A DNA stretch of 33,628 bases from a bacterium (GCA_963663405.2 CAXXSM010000145.1:1-33628), one strand, 5' to 3'. Shown: positions 19,452 through 33,628, counted from the stretch's first letter. A program made the numbers and translations. Notes: a model not told the origin generated them from the letters alone.

Positions 19452-20161
19452 GCAGGAAAAGGCTTTATCCCTTTGGATTTACTTGACACATTATATACAT
19501 ACAAATCAACCAGCGCTTTTAAGACGCAGCCGTGTTGATTAATACGATTTCGCGTTCCACACACAAAAAAGGATTGGTATGACCTTGAAACACTTCCCAA
19601 ACGAATGCAAATAAGGTATCAACTGGATATTTTCAATCTTGCGTCAATCACGATATCATAAGAATTAAAAAGAATCAACATAAAATTTCATTTTTTTTCA
19701 ATCCAGAGTGGATATGTAAAAATTCATTTTAAGATTTTCTAATATTTTGTAAAATTCAAATAACTGACATTTGGTTGAGTTTTCTAACTGTCTGATTTGT
19801 AATAATTTATGTTTTATTTGTGATCTATCGGTGTGTATTACTAGTAGATATATAGTGTTTTTATTTTTTACAAAATTGACCATCCTTTTCAATATTCAAT
19901 TCATATTGATAAATTATCAGTTTTTATTTGGATTTCACATAATACATGTAATTCTGAATTTTAGCGCGTAAACATGAAAAGGGATTGATATAAGCCACTG
20001 GGATTAAAGGTTACAATGTGTAAAGGAAAAGAGTTGCGGGAGACATAATAAACTTGAAAGGCCCTGAAATTTTTTTTAGATAAAATGGATTCATATTCAG
20101 TTTTCGATTTTATCCTGCTTTGTTTTAATTGATAAAAACTTCATCCGTATACGATAGTCGA

Positions 20162-21602: not shown

Positions 21603-21772
21603 CTATTTGTTATATTGTGAATCATTGAGATAAATGATGAGCCGAGCCAACCGGCGGTCTGTTAGAATGACATCGGGATAGCGATCGTCATTGACCCATT
21701 CGGAAATCACGGTGAGGTGTTGATCGAGGGAATAGGGGATTGAGAGGGGGACGGTGGCGAGGCCGGTGTAGG
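21603..21772 (-). pseudogene. Orphan 3' fragment of the FG-GAP surface-protein gene (alternative C-terminus)
   Basis: Translates as [55 protein letters not shown], versus ...[25 protein letters not shown] in the full gene. It has no start of its own. Confidence 0.85.
21616..21772. repeat. 157 bp direct repeat, copy 1
   Basis: Aligns without gaps to 25681..25837 with 11 mismatches. 21703-21772 is identical to 25768-25837 (70 bp). Confidence 0.97.
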
Positions 21773-21792: not shown

Positions 21793-22536
21793 TCATATTT
21801 CGATCGATTTAATTACCAGTTTGTCCATCAGATACTGCCAGCGAGCCGCAAATCTGTCCCGGTTATTTTGTAAAAATGTCCATATCTCTTTTGTTCCATC
21901 CATAATGAATTCATCATTTATACCTGTATCAATTAGTCTACGCTCTACTTTTCCTAACATATCAATGAAGAGTCCACAATCTTGATCTCTTATGGCGATT
22001 TCTGTAATCGTGATAGACGAGCAGTCGCGATTGATCTCAGTCAGTACATCTCTCATTTCCACAAGGAAATCATTACGTTTTCCTTTATCATTACACATAA
22101 AAACGTTACTACAGATTTCATGAAGCAATCCCAGAGAGTACTGAAATCGGGATCCGAAATGAAAGTTGTCATGAAAAGCGCAATAGTTCCTCCGAAGATT
22201 GAGTAATTCGATTTGCGCTTTCCTCTCACTACTCTTAATGGTCGATAGGATATATCCGCCAATAGTAACGATTATAATCATGAATAGATTATAGAAGAAA
22301 GAAATGGTATTGGTATCAAAGAGATTTTTCTGTATATTCTTCAGACGCTCGATTCGTGATTCAACAGCTTCTACATCATTTTCTGTGACCTTGTTCAATA
22401 TGCTAATTGATTTGTTTCCAATTTTATTGAGTGTTACGTAGTGATTGTAGTACGCGCCCCAGAAGAATATTCCACACATCATGAGCATGAGAATCAACAA
22501 AACATATATAATTCCCTGAAATATTTTTTCATTCAT
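21793..22536 (-). CDS. Hypothetical 2-TM membrane protein with cytoplasmic helical C-terminal domain (247 aa)
   Basis: Two hydrophobic segments (~aa 8-29 and ~78-98) around a short charged loop. AAGGAG RBS; starts 19 bp after the receiver gene. Confidence 0.8.
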   Translation of the reverse strand: MNEKIFQGIIYVLLILMLMMCGIFFWGAYYNHYVTLNKIGNKSISILNKVTENDVEAVESRIERLKNIQKNLFDTNTISFFYNLFMIIIVTIGGYILSTIKSSERKAQIELLNLRRNYCAFHDNFHFGSRFQYSLGLLHEICSNVFMCNDKGKRNDFLVEMRDVLTEINRDCSSITITEIAIRDQDCGLFIDMLGKVERRLIDTGINDEFIMDGTKEIWTFLQNNRDRFAARWQYLMDKLVIKSIEI

Positions 22537-22555
22537 ATCTAATGCTCCTTTATTC

Positions 22556-22993
22556 TCATATTCTTTGCAAGAATTTGATTATCTCCTCACCTGGACTTGT
22601 ATTACCTTCTCTCTTCTTAATCTGCTTCATTTGATTAAGAAGATTCTTATCTTTCGTTGTGGCATTCATTTTCAACACATCAAGGTATGCAGAATAGATA
22701 ATCGTTCGCTCAAGCATCTCAGGATATGAAGGTAACACATGCTTTTTAAACCAAATCCAACCACTAAATAGCCCATCTTTGGTTCCATTAATTTCTTTTG
22801 GCTTGAGACCGTCAGTCGGAAGATTCAGATCCAGTATAATCGCATGTATTTCAACTTCCTCTTCTCCACTCATATAGCTGTTTGCATCAGACGGATTAAA
22901 TGCCTCATATACTTTAAATCCCTTATATTCAAGTAAATCTGTTAGGGTAGCTGTGATTGAACCTCGATCTTCGAGTAATAACACATTCAACAT
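22556..22993 (-). CDS. Single-domain response regulator (REC only)
   Basis: VLLLED acidic pair, IILD55LNLP phosphoacceptor, IIYS101A switch residue, Lys near 126-127. No output domain. Starts 2 bp after the kinase stop. Confidence 0.9.
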   Translation of the reverse strand: MLNVLLLEDRGSITATLTDLLEYKGFKVYEAFNPSDANSYMSGEEEVEIHAIILDLNLPTDGLKPKEINGTKDGLFSGWIWFKKHVLPSYPEMLERTIIYSAYLDVLKMNATTKDKNLLNQMKQIKKREGNTSPGEEIIKFLQRI

Positions 22994-22995
22994 GA

Positions 22996-25479
22996 TTATC
23001 CATTCTCCTTTCGTGGAAACCGAGCAACAAAAGTTACTTTATATGTAGGCTTATCTATTTCGTCTCTTATGGCCTGTTTGGAAGGAGGATATCTTAGGAT
23101 TTTTATAGGCTCGTTGGTCATAAGATTAAGTTTCGGTCTTCCATTTGTATCCAATTCATATTCTTTTGCGACAACTTGATCATAGATTTTAGATTTCTTT
23201 AAACGTTCCAATTCTGCAGTTAATATATCAAGTTTTTCTTTATCTTTTAAGACTTTTTTCTGTCTAATACATGGTTCAAGCAAAGGAATATTGTATTTTG
23301 ATATTTCTTCATTTTCTTCGACCGTGATTGTTCCACCATGGGCTTCCGTTATTTTACGCGCAAGATAGAGACCAATCCCGAGACCGGATTCGGCATTATC
23401 TGATTTATTAAAGGCTCCAAATATGTTATGGTTTACATCGGCTCGAATACCATAATCAGTGATACTAAGGATGTACATAGCATTTTGTTTTGGATTCCTT
23501 CCATCATTCGATTCAAGTTTAAAATCCATATGAATGCAAGTACCACGATAGCCATACTTTTCTGCGTTGTTTAAAATATTATAAATTAGCATTTCCAAGA
23601 GGTTTATATCCGCTGTAATTTCTGGTCGCAGATGATCATTAAATTTCTTAGGTACCTGATAACGTAAAATCATCTTTTTTCTCTCTCTTTCCATATAAAA
23701 AGAATCCCACCATTTACCAAGGAGTTCTCTATATGGTGAGAAAGTATCTAGTTGAACATTGAGTGCTTCGTTATAAGCAATCTTTCTGGCAAATTCCGTG
23801 ATGCTCCTTAACTGTTTGAGATAAGCTCTAATATTACGGGATAAATCCTCGGCCTTTTTGTCAGTAATTCCTCTCATCTCATCCGGTGTTTCCATGTAGC
23901 GCAAACGAATGAAATCGAGCCCATCACACTGTTGAGATAACTCGTGTGATAGATACAAAAGTTCACGCTGTTCGATCATAGCAGTATGATAAGCAGTAAA
24001 CGAAGCCATAATGCTTCCAATGAGAGTGAATAGCGGACGAAGTGTTCCATAAAAATCGTTATCTCGAATGAATCCGTTCTGTGGTTTATGTTCTGGAGCA
24101 GAGAGAGGACACACGTCTGACATGCCAAAGAGAAAAAACGGAGGCGTGATAATTCCAAAATGCAATGGCACAGAAATTAATGCAAACTCTCCCAACAATT
24201 CACAATCTTCACATTGGAGTCTTGAAAGAAGTGGAGAGTCGGGGGAATTAGAGAGAACTACATCATACTCTGTGCGAATAGGAGGGTTGTCCATGCTTAT
24301 ACGAAGCGTTTTTAAAATTCTCTCATCGACAGAAGAACCATCTGGTGGGATAGCAATGGCAATTGGACTTAGGTTTTTGGACAAGGTTAGATGTTCTAAA
24401 GAGGCGAACATTACTACATATTGAAGTGAGAACTCTTCTCTTATTTTTTCCATAATCTCAGACATAATGATCTGAAAATACTCGCTCATTTCGGAATACT
24501 CACCGGGAGTGATAAATGAGAGTTCGTCGTCGATTTTCCTTGATGCGCTCGTTACACGGGTTCGAACATAAAAACGCCGCTGGCTTTCCAGTTCTCTTTG
24601 TAGAACATCCCTCTCCAGTGTGCATAGAGATTTATCGACCATCTCAATCAGGTTTTCATAATCATCATTTGAAAGTACACGACTTCTCTCGTGTCGCTCA
24701 TTCAAAATATGTGGCGTGTTCTCTTCATTTGGTGAGATTGCATCGTCCAATTCACTTATCAATTCATCATGCAATGTATTTAAGAGGTATTTTTCGTCTA
24801 ATCCATATTTGGCGCAGTAATTTTCGAAACAGTTGGGGAAACGATGAAGCAATTCAACAGGGCGGTTTTTAATAAATTGCTTCTTCTTATCAAGTATTAT
24901 TTGTTCTTCAAAAAAAGTGGCTACTAAACGATCTTCAAGAAGGATAGGGAAAATAGTCACGCGAAAACCCAAAAAAGGGCAATCATATTCGATATAATTG
25001 CGTCTTCCAACTTTATTTATTTTGATGTTACTATAAGAGATATTCTTGTATAATTCCTTCGTTGAAGGAGTTTCTTCGATATTTTTGTAATAGCGATCTA
25101 TCTCAACATCGTTCCAACCATTATTCGCAAGATGATGCACTAGCAATGCATAAAAATCATCACAACGTTTACAGAGAATAGAATCTTCACCATCATCAGA
25201 AAGAGTAATTTTACGGAAGAATTCACATGATCGGCACATCTTGTAGGGCAACAACGATGAATCTGTTCTTCGGCACTCAGAATTTACTATCTCAATTATC
25301 GTAGAGGGGTAACCAGCCTGATCAGATATGGAGAATTGAATTCCTTGCATATAAATATTAGGAATAAGGCCGAATATGTCCTTACGATCATCCTTTGAAC
25401 CATCAGGCAATATCCAATAGTCACTAGTAATGCAGTCAGGTCTAAGCGGCCATTTACTATTACTACAACGTTCTGGCAT
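22996..25479 (-). CDS. Soluble sensor histidine kinase with PocR-like and GAF-like input domains
   Basis: PocR-like pattern (CEFFRK...LCKRCD...YDCPFLGF...FPILLEDRLVATFF.EQ), H-box LSHELSQ, N-box NILNNAEKYG, ITDYG, GLGIGLYLARKITEAHGG. No obvious TM segment. ATG 25479 has a GGAG RBS; the ORF track TTG start at 25527 is an alternative. Confidence 0.88.
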   Translation of the reverse strand: MPERCSNSKWPLRPDCITSDYWILPDGSKDDRKDIFGLIPNIYMQGIQFSISDQAGYPSTIIEIVNSECRRTDSSLLPYKMCRSCEFFRKITLSDDGEDSILCKRCDDFYALLVHHLANNGWNDVEIDRYYKNIEETPSTKELYKNISYSNIKINKVGRRNYIEYDCPFLGFRVTIFPILLEDRLVATFFEEQIILDKKKQFIKNRPVELLHRFPNCFENYCAKYGLDEKYLLNTLHDELISELDDAISPNEENTPHILNERHERSRVLSNDDYENLIEMVDKSLCTLERDVLQRELESQRRFYVRTRVTSASRKIDDELSFITPGEYSEMSEYFQIIMSEIMEKIREEFSLQYVVMFASLEHLTLSKNLSPIAIAIPPDGSSVDERILKTLRISMDNPPIRTEYDVVLSNSPDSPLLSRLQCEDCELLGEFALISVPLHFGIITPPFFLFGMSDVCPLSAPEHKPQNGFIRDNDFYGTLRPLFTLIGSIMASFTAYHTAMIEQRELLYLSHELSQQCDGLDFIRLRYMETPDEMRGITDKKAEDLSRNIRAYLKQLRSITEFARKIAYNEALNVQLDTFSPYRELLGKWWDSFYMERERKKMILRYQVPKKFNDHLRPEITADINLLEMLIYNILNNAEKYGYRGTCIHMDFKLESNDGRNPKQNAMYILSITDYGIRADVNHNIFGAFNKSDNAESGLGIGLYLARKITEAHGGTITVEENEEISKYNIPLLEPCIRQKKVLKDKEKLDILTAELERLKKSKIYDQVVAKEYELDTNGRPKLNLMTNEPIKILRYPPSKQAIRDEIDKPTYKVTFVARFPRKENG

Positions 25480-25548
25480 CAGTTTCTCCAAACAAAGTGA
25501 TCCTGTGGAAATCCAATCGCTTTTCAATTTAATTTAACAGCATAATGT

Positions 25549-25578
25549 ACTATATATTCTATAATTATTGGACGTCAA
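25549..25578 (-). promoter_or_regulatory. Putative sigma70 promoter of the islet operon
   Basis: Minus strand TTGACG, 18 bp spacer, TATAGT, in the AT-rich spacer inside the repeat-bounded unit. Confidence 0.45.
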
Positions 25579-25676
25579 GTTCAGAAATCTCTTTATTGCT
25601 GATTTTTATATAATATGCTTATCACATTAAAGAAGATCGAAAAGATTCCAATGATATTGGAATCGATTATATTTTT

Positions 25677-28600
25677 TTACTGTGATTCATTGAGATATAC
25701 AATGAGCCGGTCCAACCGGCGGTCTGTTAGAATGACATCCGGATACTGATCGTCATTAACCCATTCAGAAATCACGGTGAGGTGTTGATCGAGGGAATAG
25801 GGGATTGAGAGGGGGACGGTGGCGAGGCCGGTGTAGGCGCCAGGGCTGTTTCCGCAGTAGAGGGCTAAGATGGAATATCCCGCGTTGATATCCAAGCCGG
25901 TCAGCATGATTTCGGTGTTTCCATTTTGATTGAAATCGCCCGCTGTGATTCCTGTGACGGTCATGGGCAATCGATTTTGCAGGATTTGAGACTGAATCCG
26001 GTCCGTCGCGCCGAAAAAAGTACGAACCGTTCCATCAAATGACGGGACGATAATGTCCGTGATGGTATCCGCGTTCAGATCCATTAGAGATAATCCCAAT
26101 GGCGTGTTGCCCGCGATGATATCGTCTAGGTTCATCGTATACAAGCGATGCAATTGGCGATTTTGAAGCGCAAAGATAGAAACGCCGTTCGGCGCGGCGT
26201 GTGTCACGATGAGTTCATCGATACCATCCGCGTTTACATCCGCGGCTCCCAATCGCAGGGGCGTAAAGTCAACAAGCCATTCATAGAGAAGGCGGCTCCG
26301 GCCCGATTCGTAGAAGTGATAGAATAGGATTCGATCGTAGCCGCTTACGGCAAGCAACTGATTGAGCCCCGTTAGCAACCTTCCCGCCGCGATTAGTTTT
26401 AATGGCGCGTGATAGCCTTGGATTCCGGGGAGCGGCGCCTCAATGGGGAGAGAGATCTGGTGGGTTTGTGTGAAATTCCCCTGTCCGGCTCCTTGGTGAA
26501 TCGTGAGGACGGAATCGATCGCGCCAAGGAGGATTAGATCATCCTTGGCGTCTCCCGTCAGGTCTTTCATAATCACATTCAGACATCCTTCCCCCCCGAT
26601 CCAATCCGACCGCGTATATTCTCCATTTGCGCCGCTCATTAATAACGTCGCTGAATTGCTGTCATAATTCGCTGTCAGAAAATCCGGTTGGCCATCCTGA
26701 TTGATATCCGAAGAGACAACATCCAATGGGCCCGGTCCGACAGATTCTATCCGGTAGGGAGAGAAGGCGATCTGTTCTCCGCAGGGAGACAACACGATAG
26801 TTGGAACGGGCAGCGGTGTTGGTGTGGGTGTCTTTGTCGGAGTCGGAGTAGCTCTATTAAACGCCGCTGTGGGAGTGGGAGAACGATAGACTGCGATTAT
26901 AGGAAGTTGAATAGGGTGGAGAGGTGGATTCTCAGTGGAGTGTATTTCTATCTGACCACCGGGCATGACGCGCATAGCGGCGATTCCCTTTGGTAGGGGT
27001 GTGGGAACGATCCATGCGATCTGCTCGCGTGGAAATGTATTGGGGATGATGAAGTCATACAGTGAATTTTGGCTTTGGTATTGTTCCGAGGAATTGAGAA
27101 TCACTGGCGGGGATAGATAGAAGGATCGAAAAATAAAGTGAGAGACTTTGATCAGCGCTTGCTGCGATCGCGCGCGTTTTCCATCGGACACGTGTATTGT
27201 AATGGGAAACGATCCCACCCGCTTCGGTTCCTGCGCCCATAATATGCGAGAGGAATCGATGGTTAAAACCGGCCCGTCCGAATGGGTTTCCACTTCCCAG
27301 GATAGAAGGTCTTTCTGTGTATAATCGCTGTGAACGTATTCATCCAAGTTCAGTAAAACTGTAGACGGCTGATCAAGGAGGATTCGTAGATCGGGAATTT
27401 TTCTTAATACAAGTAAATTCTCCAACATGATGGTTGGAGTACAAGAGGGTGATTTTGTTGGCGTCCGTGTCGAAGTGGGGATGCGCGTAGGCGTTACCGT
27501 TGAAACCGGTGTTGGGGTGAATGTTTGTGTGGCGGTGGAAGATGGGGCGCTGGCGGGCGTCAACGTACGCGTTTGTGTAATCGTGAGAGTTGGCGTTGGT
27601 GTTAATGTTGCTGTAGATGCAGCCGTTGTTGTATATGTTAAGGTTGGACTCATTGTAAACGAGGGCGTAACCGTTGGCGCCCACGTTGGGATTTGTGTTG
27701 GGAAGGCGAATGTTGGAACAGAAATAGTCCTTGTAGGTGTTGGTGATGTTGTTGGAACGAGTGTCCATGCGGGTGTGTTGGAAGGTGTTGGAGTAAAGGA
27801 CGCGGCAAGAGTCCTCGTTGGAGCGGCGGTTATAGTTGGATGAATCATGGGCGTCCAGGTGAGTGAAGGCGCCGGTGTGACTGTGGGCGTGTTCGTTGAC
27901 GTGGGGGATAGAGTACGTGTTGGTGTTGCTGTTGGGATATGCGTAGGACTTGCTTGAGGTGTCCACGTTTTTGTCCTAGATGGAGATGGAGCCGGCGCTG
28001 GAGGCGCTTGAGTTGGAGATACAAAAATGAAATAGGAGATCTCTTTTTGACTGCGCTCGTTTCCATCATCGGCGTACATAGTAAAACGGCGCGTTCCAAG
28101 CCGGTCTGTATCCAGTTCTAAGTCCATGAAGGCGAAGGAAGGAATGTAGGCCGATCCAAGAATTTCAACAGGCGCGTTTTGTGAAAAAGAAATTGTAAGC
28201 GAATCCCCGTCTTCATCCGTAACGGCGGCAGACAGATACACCAACATTCCTTGTTTCCACATGTAAGGTTCTTCCGGATACACCATAATAACCGGTGGAT
28301 GATTCTTGGGTGGTTTCGTAGGAATTATGATGATCGTGGGTGTTGTGGAGGCTGTTGGAGTCGATGTTGGGGAAGCTGTCTGTGTGGGCGTGGTTGTTGG
28401 AATGGGAGTAGGCGCCGCTGTCTGAGTCTCTGTCTGTGTCGGAATTGAAGTAAATGTTGGGGTTGATGAAGGTGTCCAGGTGGCGGTTGATGTGGGGATT
28501 GGGGTGAAAGTAGATGTGTGTGTTGGGCTAGGAGGGATCACACCCCATTCATCCACAATCATGTAGGTGATCTCTTTATCACTCGTCTCTTTTCCATCAT

Positions 28601-30772
28601 TGGCGGAGACAAGAACGTGATACAGACCATACCGGTCTGTGTTCAATGCGGCGTCGAAATACGCGTAATAGGGAATGTGCGCTTCATTCTTAATTGCGGC
28701 AAGTGTGGAGGGGGCCATAGAGATAGTAAGGGGATCGCCGTCTTCATCGAACACAGCGATGGATATAAAAGCCTGCGAACCACGCGCCCATCGATAAGGG
28801 CCGTCTGGATTGATTGTGATCAGAGGAGGATGGTTTCTGGGCGGTTGCGTGGGTGTTGATGTGTTCGTTCGTGTTGGAATTGTCGTATGGGTCAAAGTCA
28901 TGGAAGGCGCCGGAGTCGATGTGAAGGTCCATGTTGGCGTAAGCGTAGGTGTATAAGTATGTGTAGCGGTCCATGTTGGCGCCGGGGTATTAGTAAAAGT
29001 GGGGGATGGCGCGCAGGTTGGGGTATACGTAGGTTCGAATGTGGGAGAGGGGGAGGGAGTCGCTGTTGGAGGGATCCAACCGCTTTCATCAAAAACGAAA
29101 AAAGAGATATCCCGCCATGTAGATTCTCTTCCATCATCCGCGTGGATAGTGAAACCAAAACTCCCTAATCGCTCTGTCTTCAATTCTAAATCCATATAGG
29201 CGTAACAAGGGATAAAGGCCATGCCCTTGATCTTCACATACTCATCTGAAGATATGGAAACCGTAATAGGATCCCCGTCTTCATCGAAAACGATGCTGGA
29301 GATCACGATCTGTTCGTTCTGCTGGAACCGATACGGCTCTTCGGGATGGACTTGAATCTGAGGAGGATGGTTCCAGGGCCTGATTGTGCGCGTTGCTGTG
29401 ACAGTTGGAGATGGGGTAGCGGATGGAGCCGGTGTTGGGGATGGGGTAGGCGTGCATGTGTGTGTCAACGTAGGTTCGGGAGTGAAGGTAGGCGCCACCG
29501 TCGGTGTTACCGTTTTTGTGGGAATAACTGTTGCAGTTGATGTCGGTTCCGGCGTAGGCGTCCGAGATGGCGCCGGTGTATTTGTAGGCGCGGCGGTTGG
29601 TGTTTGAGTTTGAGTGGCAGCAGGTGTTTCGGTGTAATTGGCGGAAGGCGTTTGAGTGACTGTAGGAGTTTCGGTATGAGTGGCTGTAGGAACTTGAGTG
29701 ACTGTAGAAGTTTCGGTATGAGTGGCGGTAGGAATATGAGTGACTGTAGAAGTTTCGGTATGAGTGGCTGTTGGAGTCTGTGTGACAGTGGGCGTTTCAG
29801 TATGTGTAGGCGTTGGAGTCTGGGTGACAGTGGGCGTTTCGGTATGTGTAGGCGTTGGAGTCTGGGTGACAGTGGGCGTTTCAGTATGTGTAGGCGTTGG
29901 AGTCTGTGTGACAGTGGGCGTTTCAGTATGTGTAGGCGTTGGAGTCTGTGTGACAGTGGGCGTTTCGGTATGAGTAGCAGTTGGAGTCTGGGTGACAGTG
30001 GGCGTTTCAGTATGAGTAGGCGTTGGAGTCTGTGTGACAGTGGGCGTTTCAGTATGTGTAGGCGTTGGAGTCTGTGTGACAAGTGGGCGTTTCAGTATGA
30101 GTAGCAGTTGGAGTCTGGGTGACAGTGGGCGTTTCAGTATGTGTAGGCGTTGGAGTCTGTGTGACAGTGGGCGTTTCGGTATGAGTAGCAGTTGGAGTCT
30201 GTGTGACAGTGGGCGTTTCGGTATGAGTAGCAGTTGGAGTCTGGGTGACAGTGGGCGTTTCAGTATGAGTAGCTGTTGGAGTTTGGGTGGCAGTGGGCGT
30301 TTCGGTATGTGTAGGCGTTGGAGTCTGGGTGACAGTGGGCGTTTCGGTATGTGTAGGCGTTGGAGTCTGGGTGACAGTGGGCGTTTCGGTATGAAGTAGC
30401 AGTTGGAGTCTGGGTGACAGTGGGCGTTTCAGTATGAGTAGGAGTTGGAGTCTGTGTGACAGTGGGCGTTTCTGTATGGGTGGCAGACGGAGTGTGAGTA
30501 ACTGTGGGTGTCTTTGTTTGTGTGGCTGTATTGGTTGTTGTTTGTGTAACTGTTCGAGTTGGTGTTGGTGAATGATATTTTGTAGGGGTTGGGGAACGGG
30601 TTTTGGTTGGTGTTGGGAGAGCGGGGTTCTCTGTTGGAGTCGGCGTATCCGTTACTGTTGGTGTGTATTGCTGCGCGTTGGTATGGTTCACCAAAATTAG
30701 AGAGAGGGCTACAATGCATAAACAGAGAATCCTCAGGGAATTCTGACTTTTGCGATTCATGTTACTAAACAT
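25677..30772 (-). CDS. Giant Pro/Thr-rich surface protein with Ig/cadherin-like repeats and C-terminal FG-GAP/VCBS repeats (~1,697 aa; two frameshifts)
   Basis: The signal-peptide ORF 30260..30772 joins 25677..29498 exactly if two extra A's (at ~30394 and ~30081, both breaking the 42 bp repeat unit) are removed. Three NHPP...DEDGD...ADDG domains, PT linkers, and FG-GAP motifs [33 protein letters not shown]. Confidence 0.88.
25681..25837. repeat. 157 bp direct repeat, copy 2 (the 3' end of the surface-protein gene)
   Basis: Matches 21616..21772 at a constant offset of 4,065 bp. Confidence 0.97.
29650..30510. repeat. Intragenic 42 bp tandem repeat, ~20 copies ([11 protein letters not shown][P/A]TH)
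   Basis: Unit gttggagtctg[tg]gtgacagtgggcgtttc[ag]gtatg[ta]gtag[gc/ca], near-identical in the centre and degenerate at both ends. Confidence 0.95.
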
Positions 30773-30899
30773 AATAATTTTATTCGTTGTGTGCCAGTAT
30801 TTGAGTATGTAAATGTTTGAGTGAACGCCGAAACTGCTTATTTTGCAATATTAACATCCAAAGGATGGAATCTCTAGGTCTATTTATAAGAAAAACGTC

Positions 30900-31959: not shown

Positions 31960-32796
31960 TCATCGATTTACCCGCTTTGGGAAAGACGGGTTTCGCGTAA
32001 CAATAGACGCATCATGCGGGCATGACATCTGATAGCCGCCGATATCCGCGCTTTTGGTGCAGCCGCATGTCCGCCGCTGACTTGTATCCGCGCCAAGGAA
32101 CATCGCTCCCCCGCCAGTTTCAGACAGAATCGCTCCATTCACGCAGCTCCCGCGTATAATTCCTTCCACCTTCAGAAGGGCGTCATCGCAACAGGATTCC
32201 ATCTGGATTTCCCGCTCCATCGCCATACGGGATAGTGGTTCCAGAATCGCTAATTTCTCCTGCAGGGGAGGATCGTAAAAATTCATATGGCGTTCCACAA
32301 TCCGTTTCTTCACTTTGTTGTACCACGTCACAAAAGAGAATGTGCAGCGGGTTATCCCCCGTCCAGCCATGAAATCAGCGATCCGCTCGAAGGTTCCGAG
32401 ATTGTTTTGTTTTCCCCCATCCCAGAAGACGATTGGATCGAACCGCCAATTGATCTGTTGGGGCTGCCAGCGCTCGCAGATCTCTTCGACTTGCTTGAGA
32501 CGGTCTTCTAAAGGGGGAACGCCCGGTTCCCATTCCGGACAATCGACTAGACTGAAATTGAAATACCACCGGTACTCTTTAGAATGAGAAAGATCTGAAT
32601 CGAGGAAGGGGCGATAATTCTTTGACCACAGTACAATTGTATGCGTGTCTTCCGGACGCAGACTGACGCGATAAAAGCGTTCTCTCACAACGGGATTGCG
32701 CACGTCAACGTATCCTTCGCGGACCCGATTTTCGAACCAGCGCATGTAAAATGCGGGGATATCCGTGCGGCGGGAAGCGGAGATTACGGTACGCAT
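31960..32796 (-). CDS. DUF1848 domain protein (radical-SAM-like); C-terminus probably frameshifted
   Basis: ISASRRTDIPAFY, VLWSKN, WRFDPI, CC..C and QR..CGC..S.DIG. One missing base near 32010 would restore the expected CPHGCVYCYA motif. Confidence 0.9.
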   Translation of the reverse strand: MRTVISASRRTDIPAFYMRWFENRVREGYVDVRNPVVRERFYRVSLRPEDTHTIVLWSKNYRPFLDSDLSHSKEYRWYFNFSLVDCPEWEPGVPPLEDRLKQVEEICERWQPQQINWRFDPIVFWDGGKQNNLGTFERIADFMAGRGITRCTFSFVTWYNKVKKRIVERHMNFYDPPLQEKLAILEPLSRMAMEREIQMESCCDDALLKVEGIIRGSCVNGAILSETGGGAMFLGADTSQRRTCGCTKSADIGGYQMSCPHDASIVTRNPSFPKRVNR

Positions 32797-32816: not shown

Positions 32817-33628
32817 CTATTGTGGATTTTTATAAAGTAAAAACAGCGGAACGCGGTCGATTTCAATAGATGCGATGGGTTTCAATTGTTTATAGAGAAT
32901 CCATTCCGCTTGTCGCCGAAACATGCCTTGACGGCATTGTAACAGGAAATAATCCGCAGTCAAATCTCCTGTTGGACGCAGATCGGATCGCAGCCAACCA
33001 CGTTCCTGGTCATATTGAATCGGTTCCACGGGCATGCTCAGAGGTTGAAGCGTGTTCCCTTCGGGAATGGTTTCGTTGATGACGGTCAGGAAATCTTTCG
33101 TCAGCGCATCGCACCAGTATGTGGTTTCCATACCTAATTCTTTGGAACCGCGAATCCCCCCGGCGAGTTGGTTGTAGTAACTTAAGTAGAAGGGATGGTG
33201 TTGAACGTAGAAAACGGAGGAAGGCAGAATCAAAATAAAAAGCAATATTGAATGTGAGGGAACATCGCGCAGCGAGCGCTTCAGAATTGTCCAAACGGCG
33301 TGATAGCCGAATCCCGCTAAGCAGGCGGCGAAGGGGAAGCATGGCAGGAACAGACGGCATCCATCGTACGCCTGCGCCAAGGGAAGAAGAACGATCGCCA
33401 GCGGTGTGAGGAACAGCAGCGAGAGAAGCAGGCGCACACCTCCATTCTCAAGAATGATGACGCGGTTTTGCTCCATCTTGTATCGAAGCGTAGAACACAA
33501 TGGGCTGATGAATCCCCAAAGGAAGAAGAATAAAATGGAGAGTGGAACCGTGAACGCGAACATCACAAGGGGATAATGCCACGGCGTGTTCTTTCCATAC
33601 TGGTTTCCAAAATAGTATAAAGGAATGG
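32817..33628 (-). CDS. Polytopic membrane glycosyltransferase (GT-C, ArnT/PMT-like), 5' part outside the window
   Basis: The frame stays open to the window edge. PWHYPLVM, multiple TM helices, YDG.RLFLP.FPF, LSYYNQLAGG..G and METTYW. Confidence 0.7.
   Translation of the reverse strand, partial: IPLYYFGNQYGKNTPWHYPLVMFAFTVPLSILFFFLWGFISPLCSTLRYKMEQNRVIILENGGVRLLLSLLFLTPLAIVLLPLAQAYDGCRLFLPCFPFAACLAGFGYHAVWTILKRSLRDVPSHSILLFILILPSSVFYVQHHPFYLSYYNQLAGGIRGSKELGMETTYWCDALTKDFLTVINETIPEGNTLQPLSMPVEPIQYDQERGWLRSDLRPTGDLTADYFLLQCRQGMFRRQAEWILYKQLKPIASIEIDRVPLFLLYKNPQ

Follow-up and report, generated by a model that had tools for sequence, protein, structure and literature searches.

A rare, apparently horizontally spread cassette of a soluble sensor histidine kinase, a free-standing receiver and a two-helix membrane protein in distant bacterial lineages

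In nearly all two-component systems the output is a DNA-binding or enzymatic domain fused to the receiver. Single-domain response regulators act by protein contact, as CheY does on FliM and as DivK and CpdR also do, and those of the CheY type act on separately encoded targets. Certain kinases are controlled by small accessory membrane proteins (LiaF with LiaS, YycH/YycI with WalK), and such proteins report envelope signals or tether kinases. Here we analyse a three-gene cassette at positions 21,793 to 25,578 of a 33,628-nt stretch of bacterial DNA (GCA_963663405.2, CAXXSM010000145.1:1-33628), which we call the window and which is an entire contig of an 8.4-Mb metagenome-assembled genome (MAG) that is 82% complete. 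The cassette encodes a soluble sensor histidine kinase, a free-standing receiver and a membrane protein with two transmembrane (TM) helices, and the closest described system is Detocs. It consists of DtcA, a soluble TPR kinase, DtcB, a lone 'buffer' receiver, and DtcC, a receiver-effector; the effectors are sometimes transmembrane, and defence requires the phosphorelay His and Asp (Rousset et al. 2023, bioRxiv 10.1101/2023.01.24.525353).

A preliminary description of this locus, made from its sequence, had proposed three tightly coupled genes. Open reading frame (ORF) calls confirm such a trio on the minus strand, with all three frames intact and intergenic gaps of 2 and 19 nt:

22996..25527, minus strand: kinase gene, 843 aa from the TTG start at 25527
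22556..22993, minus strand: receiver gene, 145 aa
21793..22536, minus strand: gene for the two-TM protein, 247 aa

The two systems have in common a three-gene operon, a soluble sensor histidine kinase, a stand-alone receiver and a patchy distribution, and in both the output is non-transcriptional, being transmembrane in some Detocs operons and presumed to be so in the cassette. The 145-aa receiver-only gene corresponds to DtcB. The cassette differs from Detocs in its sensor, which is PocR-like and GAF-like rather than TPR (no TPR family was found by Pfam in the kinase or five homologues), and in having usually one receiver, not two; where there are two, they are near-identical, recent duplicates. 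The membrane protein also differs in carrying no fused receiver. Its first TM helix starts at residue 8, and none of 34 representatives of its family, which a profile recovered from among 1.84 billion clusters (a word-indexed search returned one relative), is extended at the N-terminus, so that the signal would need to be handed on in trans. None of the PADLOC matches is to a model named for Detocs, the Detocs content of that library being unchecked. The PADLOC matches that were obtained are PDC-M43B for the kinase, over the ATPase part only (E 6e-6), and PDC-M60B for the receiver (E 3.6e-3). Because the cassette lacks a TPR sensor and a receiver-effector fusion, and because these matches are weak and partial, we do not assign it to Detocs. 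No description of the trio was found in the literature searched, where the Detocs effector-type tables might list related operons.

Sequence comparison indicates that the trio is a conserved, rare and horizontally spread unit, which occurs in distant lineages and always reads kinase, receiver(s), membrane protein from first gene to last. An alignment of the receiver was used to scan genome and metagenome collections. The former returned five loci, two of them matching the full-length receiver family, and the latter 77, ten of them matching beyond residue 100 at family-level scores; the remaining loci, which match the generic N-terminal half of the receiver only, were not counted. A kinase homologue lies directly upstream of the receiver in 11 of the 12 loci (tblastn), and the contig of the twelfth, L023, starts at the receiver. 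The kinase homologues of L010, L016/L017 (two loci that look like the same element) and L019 are 27-29% identical over approximately residues 24-842, while those of L011, L015, L018, L020, L021, L022 and L024 are cut by contig ends or more divergent. Downstream of the receiver(s), a homologous membrane protein follows in all ten other loci that have enough sequence, this part being missing in L015, L019 and L020; in L010, L011, L018, L021, L022, L023 and L024 it is a two-TM protein of 185-352 aa.

An independent two-TM profile, built from database representatives only and containing no row from the window or the loci, matches seven of eight third-gene products (E 1.6e-62 to 2e-5), that of L024 being the miss. 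G184 and G470, which were found from the side of the membrane protein, carry kinase, receiver and two-TM protein in the same order. The proposal that the three genes stay together is thus upheld for the kinase at the 11 loci and in G184 and G470, and for the membrane protein at every assessable locus. Coupling is close elsewhere as well: 4-nt stop/start overlaps are found in L107 (G470) and at the kinase/receiver junctions of L010, L017 and L019, and the receiver and two-TM genes of L010 overlap by 1 nt.

The unit is rare wherever it was counted. The two-TM profile matches one of 35 genomes of the host phylum (the host itself), 2 of 301 genomes in the order of G036, a Bacteroidales MAG, and 2 of 401 genomes in the phylum of G035, an Acidobacteriota MAG. 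We left out of the family count four marginal matches in the order of G036 (E 2e-5 to 8e-5), two of which fall in long ORFs (936 and 875 aa) with a match to the kinase ATPase domain as well. Within the host genome no paralogue of the two-TM protein or of the sensor region of the kinase was found.

The persistence of the trio in widely differing bacteria makes the membrane protein the probable target of the signal. The reading that we prefer, with moderate confidence, is that of a horizontally acquired, self-contained phosphorelay in which the free receiver acts on the two-TM protein. The cytoplasmic kinase would use its Cys-rich PocR-like domain and its second sensor domain to sense a ligand or redox cue inside the cell, autophosphorylate on His512 and hand the phosphate to Asp55 of the free-standing receiver. 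The phosphorylated receiver would then contact the cytoplasmic helical bundle of the co-expressed two-TM protein, and this contact would alter what that protein does in the membrane, whether through its oligomeric state, through permeability (a pore, depolarisation) or through envelope signalling. The cassette is two-component signalling with a non-transcriptional, membrane-bound partner. A horizontally spreading cassette that stays intact across phyla and in which a bare receiver is partnered by a dedicated membrane protein would offer a compact and testable phosphorylation-controlled membrane function.

The kinase is a class-I (HisKA-type) sensor histidine kinase with a complete core. Its start is more likely ATG 25479 than TTG 25527, judging from a GGAG six bases upstream of the ATG and from the presence of the resulting 827-aa form in the protein database; His512 in the 827-aa numbering is the His528 of the preliminary description, which counted from the TTG. 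The domains follow in the order Cys-rich PocR-like domain, coiled-coil linker, second alpha/beta (GAF-like) domain, dimerization and histidine phosphotransfer (DHp) domain with His512, catalytic ATPase domain and C-terminal extension. Pfam HATPase_c is matched at 44.8 bits against a cut-off of 26.4, and His512-Glu513, Asn634, Asn638 and Gly699/701/703, corresponding to the H, N and G boxes, are invariant in all seven kinases compared. A structure model (mean predicted local distance difference test score, pLDDT, 70.4) shows a PAS-like domain, a long coiled coil, a second alpha/beta domain, DHp helices and a catalytic domain, with His512 inside a long helix (474-528). Foldseek matches the model to CpxA, HK853 and WalK at E 1e-8 to 1e-11, and also to bacteriophytochrome kinases. 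The same seven kinases share an invariant Cys85 and Cys167 in the Cys-rich N-terminal region and a conserved C-terminal extension of approximately 100 aa.

The sensor part is less firmly placed than the core. PocR is described in PMC13725321 as a PAS-like ligand-binding domain. The window kinase matches PocR (PF10114) at 18.6 bits, below the gathering cut-off of 23.9, and among its homologues L017 scores 23.2, L022 20.5 and L024 24.7 bits, while L010 and L011 give no match at E <= 1e-3; the match therefore falls at the same place in four of the six kinases scanned and exceeds the cut-off in one. As a lead only, residues 1-460 have PocR+GAF clusters as their language-model neighbours (score 0.93). 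The GAF label of the second sensor domain is likewise a lead, resting on these neighbours and on a model of medium confidence. Of the PocR/GAF kinase that had been proposed, the kinase core and a PocR-like match are thus retained, but PocR is sub-threshold and GAF a lead. The kinase had further been described as lacking TM helices, and this stands. Its most hydrophobic 19-residue window peaks at 1.69, contains prolines and is modelled as a beta strand, so that no TM helix is expected there. With its own sensor domains and no membrane segment, the kinase would read a cytoplasmic signal.

The receiver represents a small, distinct and divergent subfamily that keeps the phospho-acceptor residues. 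The Pfam Response_reg match is limited to residues 4-60 and, at 21.3 bits, falls short of the cut-off of 30.2. Domain scans show no second domain, in agreement with the proposal that the regulator carries neither a DNA-binding nor an enzymatic domain. A word-indexed search returned nine relatives at 39-53% identity. The acidic pair Glu8-Asp9 is at least 90% conserved, and Asp55 is invariant in all 13 receivers, tandem second copies included; in an alignment of ten receivers, the E-D-R-G motif (residues 8-11), Asp55 and an S-G-W motif that follows an insert are all invariant. The insert itself comes after the Asp55 loop. When the receiver profile is compared with OmpR-type receivers, the N-terminal half aligns with the acidic pair and Asp55 in register, and Ser101 and Lys127 would be the usual receiver Thr/Ser and Lys. 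PADLOC SduA was matched by 4 of the 10 receivers, over positions 8-73 of a 323-position profile only; because these matches are confined to the generic N-terminal half of the receiver, a link to Shedu was rejected.

As the receiver has no output domain, it would work by protein contact. In this it resembles CheY, DivK and CpdR, which also lack an output domain and whose phosphorylated forms bind target proteins. It differs from them in that the presumed target is a dedicated two-TM protein encoded in the same mobile cassette, and in being a distinct subfamily with an Asp55-loop insert and a divergent C-terminal half. No conserved fourth gene was found among the neighbours of the cassette loci. 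Given the lack of an output domain, the lack of such a gene and the transplantation of the unit between phyla, the cytoplasmic bundle of the two-TM protein is the probable target of the receiver.

The preliminary description had depicted the third product as an unannotated two-TM protein with a cytoplasmic helical domain, which agrees with our results. TM1 spans residues 8-26 and TM2 residues 78-96, with an outside helical hairpin of approximately 50 aa between them and a cytoplasmic helical bundle (approximately residues 100-240) after TM2, and no family was matched in Pfam, NCBIfam or PADLOC. The model (mean pLDDT 90.3) consists of helices throughout, those of the TM hairpin extending approximately 20 residues outside the membrane. 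The longest of the 34 family representatives is 353 aa. Conservation is highest in three places: the TM hairpin, the outer end of TM2 and an R-D pair of the bundle. A family motif, D-x-N-T-x-S-F-L-F-Q, precedes TM2 at its outer end, and Asp74, Asn76, Thr77, Ser79, Phe80, Gly93, Tyr95 and Leu97 are each common to 22-33 of the 34 rows. Scores in the language-model atlas do not exceed 0.82. The bundle was also considered as an Hpt-type phosphotransfer domain; the best cytoplasmic column has His in just 10 of 34 rows, and for want of a conserved histidine the idea of an Hpt-like relay was rejected. In L017 (8623-9593) and also in L016, the place of the two-TM gene is taken by two ORFs, one of 140 aa with about four hydrophobic segments and one of 183 aa with a single TM segment, and in L024 a ClpP/NfeD-like protease gene follows the two-TM gene.

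Several observations weigh against a self-contained phosphorelay that ends at the two-TM protein. The C-terminal half of the receiver is unmatched by Pfam or PDB profiles, the PDB matches spanning positions 1-71; because profiles do not recognise this half, an intact alpha4-beta5-alpha5 face is an assumption. No fusion of receiver and two-TM protein was found, all 34 representatives lacking an N-terminal extension (matches start at or before residue 37). The fold of the two-TM protein has no Foldseek match at E <= 1e-3 in PDB or BFVD, and its best VIA match (Z 10.5) is to generic helical hairpins and bundles, within the helical-bundle noise quoted for the tool; as modelled, the fold says nothing about activity. 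The membrane gene of L017 is in two pieces, a four-TM ORF and a one-TM ORF carrying the cytoplasmic domain of the family, and the receiver of L024 (8001-8441) is interrupted by a stop, with only its C-terminal half an intact ORF. Lastly, the GC content of the cassette is below both flanks in only four of six long loci, L017 and L022 each having one flank that is lower.

The position of the conserved columns also bears on the direction in which the signal travels. The two-TM protein may be an input or anchor partner of the soluble kinase, with the receiver acting in the manner of CheY on a target encoded elsewhere. That the TM hairpin and the outer face of TM2 are the most conserved parts would suit sensing or packing, and the conserved C-terminal extension of the kinase could dock a partner. 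LiaF with LiaS and YycH/YycI with WalK show the same co-encoding of a small membrane protein with a histidine kinase; those kinases, however, are membrane-bound and have DNA-binding regulators, whereas the cassette kinase is soluble and is accompanied by no such regulator. Moreover, the cassette kinase already possesses two sensor domains in the cytoplasm, TM-to-TM control would lack a membrane segment to act on, and there is no conserved fourth gene to serve as an alternative target. Because the cassette moves between phyla as a unit, an unlinked target would need to exist in every host. At four loci (L019-L022) a near-identical second receiver lies in tandem with the first while the membrane gene stays single, which also speaks against this arrangement. 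We consider it quite unlikely.

The genomic neighbourhoods were examined around the cassette loci. Each locus has different neighbours, in most cases housekeeping genes such as those for Der GTPase, PheT, LeuA, FtsK, formate-tetrahydrofolate ligase and rhomboids. The metabolic or chemotaxis setting that the preliminary description had named as counting against its proposal was not encountered, these neighbours being unrelated and varying by locus. Its expectation of proximity to defence islands fared less well. No recognisable island is present at the six loci scanned with PADLOC (E <= 1e-5), where 4 of 46 neighbouring ORFs are matched; three of these matches are generic (a Der-type GTPase, a TPR protein and FtsK) and the fourth is a lone DUF1848 gene. 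The same holds for the suggested likeness to the two-TM effectors of CBASS, Pycsar and retrons: the PADLOC model 'Effector 2TM' is matched by one of the 34 family members (E 0.0038), with no consistent match across the family, and Pfam scans of the cassette and of 33 neighbours show neither a cyclase nor a reverse transcriptase. IMG/VR viral contigs gave no member of the receiver family, and nor did the phage and plasmid collections (tblastn at 1e-8). The earlier interpretation as a whole thus holds in that the genes co-occur, but not in the association with defence islands.

Two loci hint at a mobile or conflict context. A Schlafen/AlbA_2 gene that also matches HATPase_c_4 lies directly after the cassette in L022 (10159-11928), and an AAA_16-TPR protein, an IS200-type transposase and an HNH-AP2 gene are found in the vicinity of L017. 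These genes can be taken in favour of anti-phage abortive infection resembling Detocs, in which infection would activate the kinase, the receiver would switch on the two-TM protein and the membrane would be depolarised or permeabilised. The cassette is rare, patchy, low in GC and self-contained, as such a system might be, and Detocs provides the precedent that a soluble kinase, a lone receiver and an effector, in some cases transmembrane, can defend (bioRxiv 10.1101/2023.01.24.525353). However, no known defence system adjoins the cassette at the six loci, the neighbours are mostly housekeeping genes, the PADLOC matches of the trio proteins are weak and partial, and the two-TM family shows nothing consistent in its 34 members. 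As the role of the cassette, abortive infection of this type seems to us somewhat unlikely. An accessory stress or conflict role fits the patchy, mobile distribution, and a defence role is possible but unsupported. The most specific form of the proposal is that the receiver, phosphorylated by the PocR/GAF kinase, switches on the two-TM protein in trans and so collapses or remodels the membrane, as an abortive-infection or conflict system distinct from Detocs, which would be a new class of two-component output; we put this forward tentatively and regard it as rather improbable. If the cassette is defensive, it would extend the idea behind Detocs, two-component signalling as direct immunity, to a separate family with its effector in trans.

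The DUF1848 gene is located in the window itself (31960-32796, minus strand), 9 kb from the cassette, and matches DUF1848 in Pfam (E 2e-67) and the PADLOC model RTasDUF1848 (E 7.6e-45), which represents a DRT-associated protein. The adjoining ORF (32817-33566) has no Pfam match, and no reverse transcriptase was recognised there before the contig ends.

The cassette of the window lies in an islet of inserted DNA. The remaining features of this islet are:

21607-21772, minus strand: left repeat copy, the displaced alternative 3' end of an FG-GAP gene, which still reads as coding
25578..25549, minus strand: promoter-like site TTGACG-18-TATAGT, 10/12 consensus matches, upstream of the kinase gene
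25644..25664, minus strand: terminator-like hairpin, a 9-pair stem with a 3-nt loop and a T-rich tail, consensus match only
25672-25837, minus strand: right repeat copy, the present 3' end of the FG-GAP gene (last 52 codons and stop)

The low-GC islet that had been described is borne out. The insert has 37% GC in DNA of approximately 50% GC (0.37 in the cassette against 0.476 and 0.505 in the 5 kb on each flank) and is bracketed by a 166-nt direct repeat. The two copies of this repeat are 92% identical, with complete identity over 72 nt on the gene-internal side (25766-25837 in the right copy), and duplicate the 3' end of the neighbouring FG-GAP gene. Across the shared 52 codons, the copies differ by five synonymous and four conservative changes, and the stop of the left copy comes three codons later; as the differences are of this kind and the stop is merely shifted, both copies look like coding sequence. 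The repeat-bracketed islet looks like an integration scar, left by an element that entered the end of a protein gene and brought its own replacement end. The cassette in G470 (L107 5468-9014) likewise coincides with a GC trough (approximately 0.50 against 0.63-0.64 in the flanks), there without long flanking repeats.

Comparable elements are e14 and phage 21, which insert into the 3' end of the icd gene of E. coli and bring a replacement end. As with these, the target's 3' end is duplicated on either side, in the islet over approximately 166 nt and with mostly synonymous or conservative differences. The islet differs from them in having no integrase, excisionase or phage genes, and in that no empty site or excised form was seen. 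Target-duplicating direct repeats at both ends, at 166 nt and 92% identity, are what a site-specific integrative element would show. The insert contains only three genes, none with an integrase or recombinase domain, which speaks against membership of that class. The repeat matched the host contig only and the available relatives are at family level (at most 68% nucleotide identity in the neighbouring gene), and for this reason an empty attachment site was not found. The stretch is present in only two contig-level sequencing runs, from one sample and at a depth of approximately 2, which may be the source sample of the assembly. Contigs in these runs bridge both junctions; neither joints nor an excised form were seen in them, and no RNA run is listed as carrying the stretch.

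An islet without an integrase, with repeat copies that have diverged to 92%, a depth of approximately 2x in the only runs that carry it and no RNA run listed could also be the inert cargo of a decayed integrative element, or the genes could form an ordinary two-component regulator whose DNA-binding partner is elsewhere or lost. Against both stand the three intact frames, the invariance of the catalytic residues across distant homologues and the recurrence of the same trio, without a DNA-binding regulator, at ten other loci. We regard these possibilities as very improbable.

The promoter-like site noted in the preliminary description is present, but such sites are not enriched in the region, where 10 were observed against 15.8 +/- 4.4 expected. 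The terminator-like hairpin is placed directly 3' of the FG-GAP gene, on the upstream margin of the insert. The FG-GAP gene (25677..29498, minus strand) encodes a protein of 1273 aa that matches Pfam FG-GAP_3 and consists of long Pro/Thr-rich linkers, three copies of a module of approximately 110 aa and C-terminal FG-GAP repeats. GC skew is very strong, up to 0.56, in this region (25677-29498) and in the adjacent 29500-30800.

Elsewhere in the window, no tRNA gene was found and an Rfam scan gave no match. On the other side of the islet, an AT-rich intergenic stretch of approximately 700 nt (19452-20161, 37-38% GC) separates two genes of approximately 50% GC. It contains short ORFs only and an imperfect inverted repeat (19674-19701 / 20054-20081), has no Rfam match, and may be another small insert or a remnant of one.

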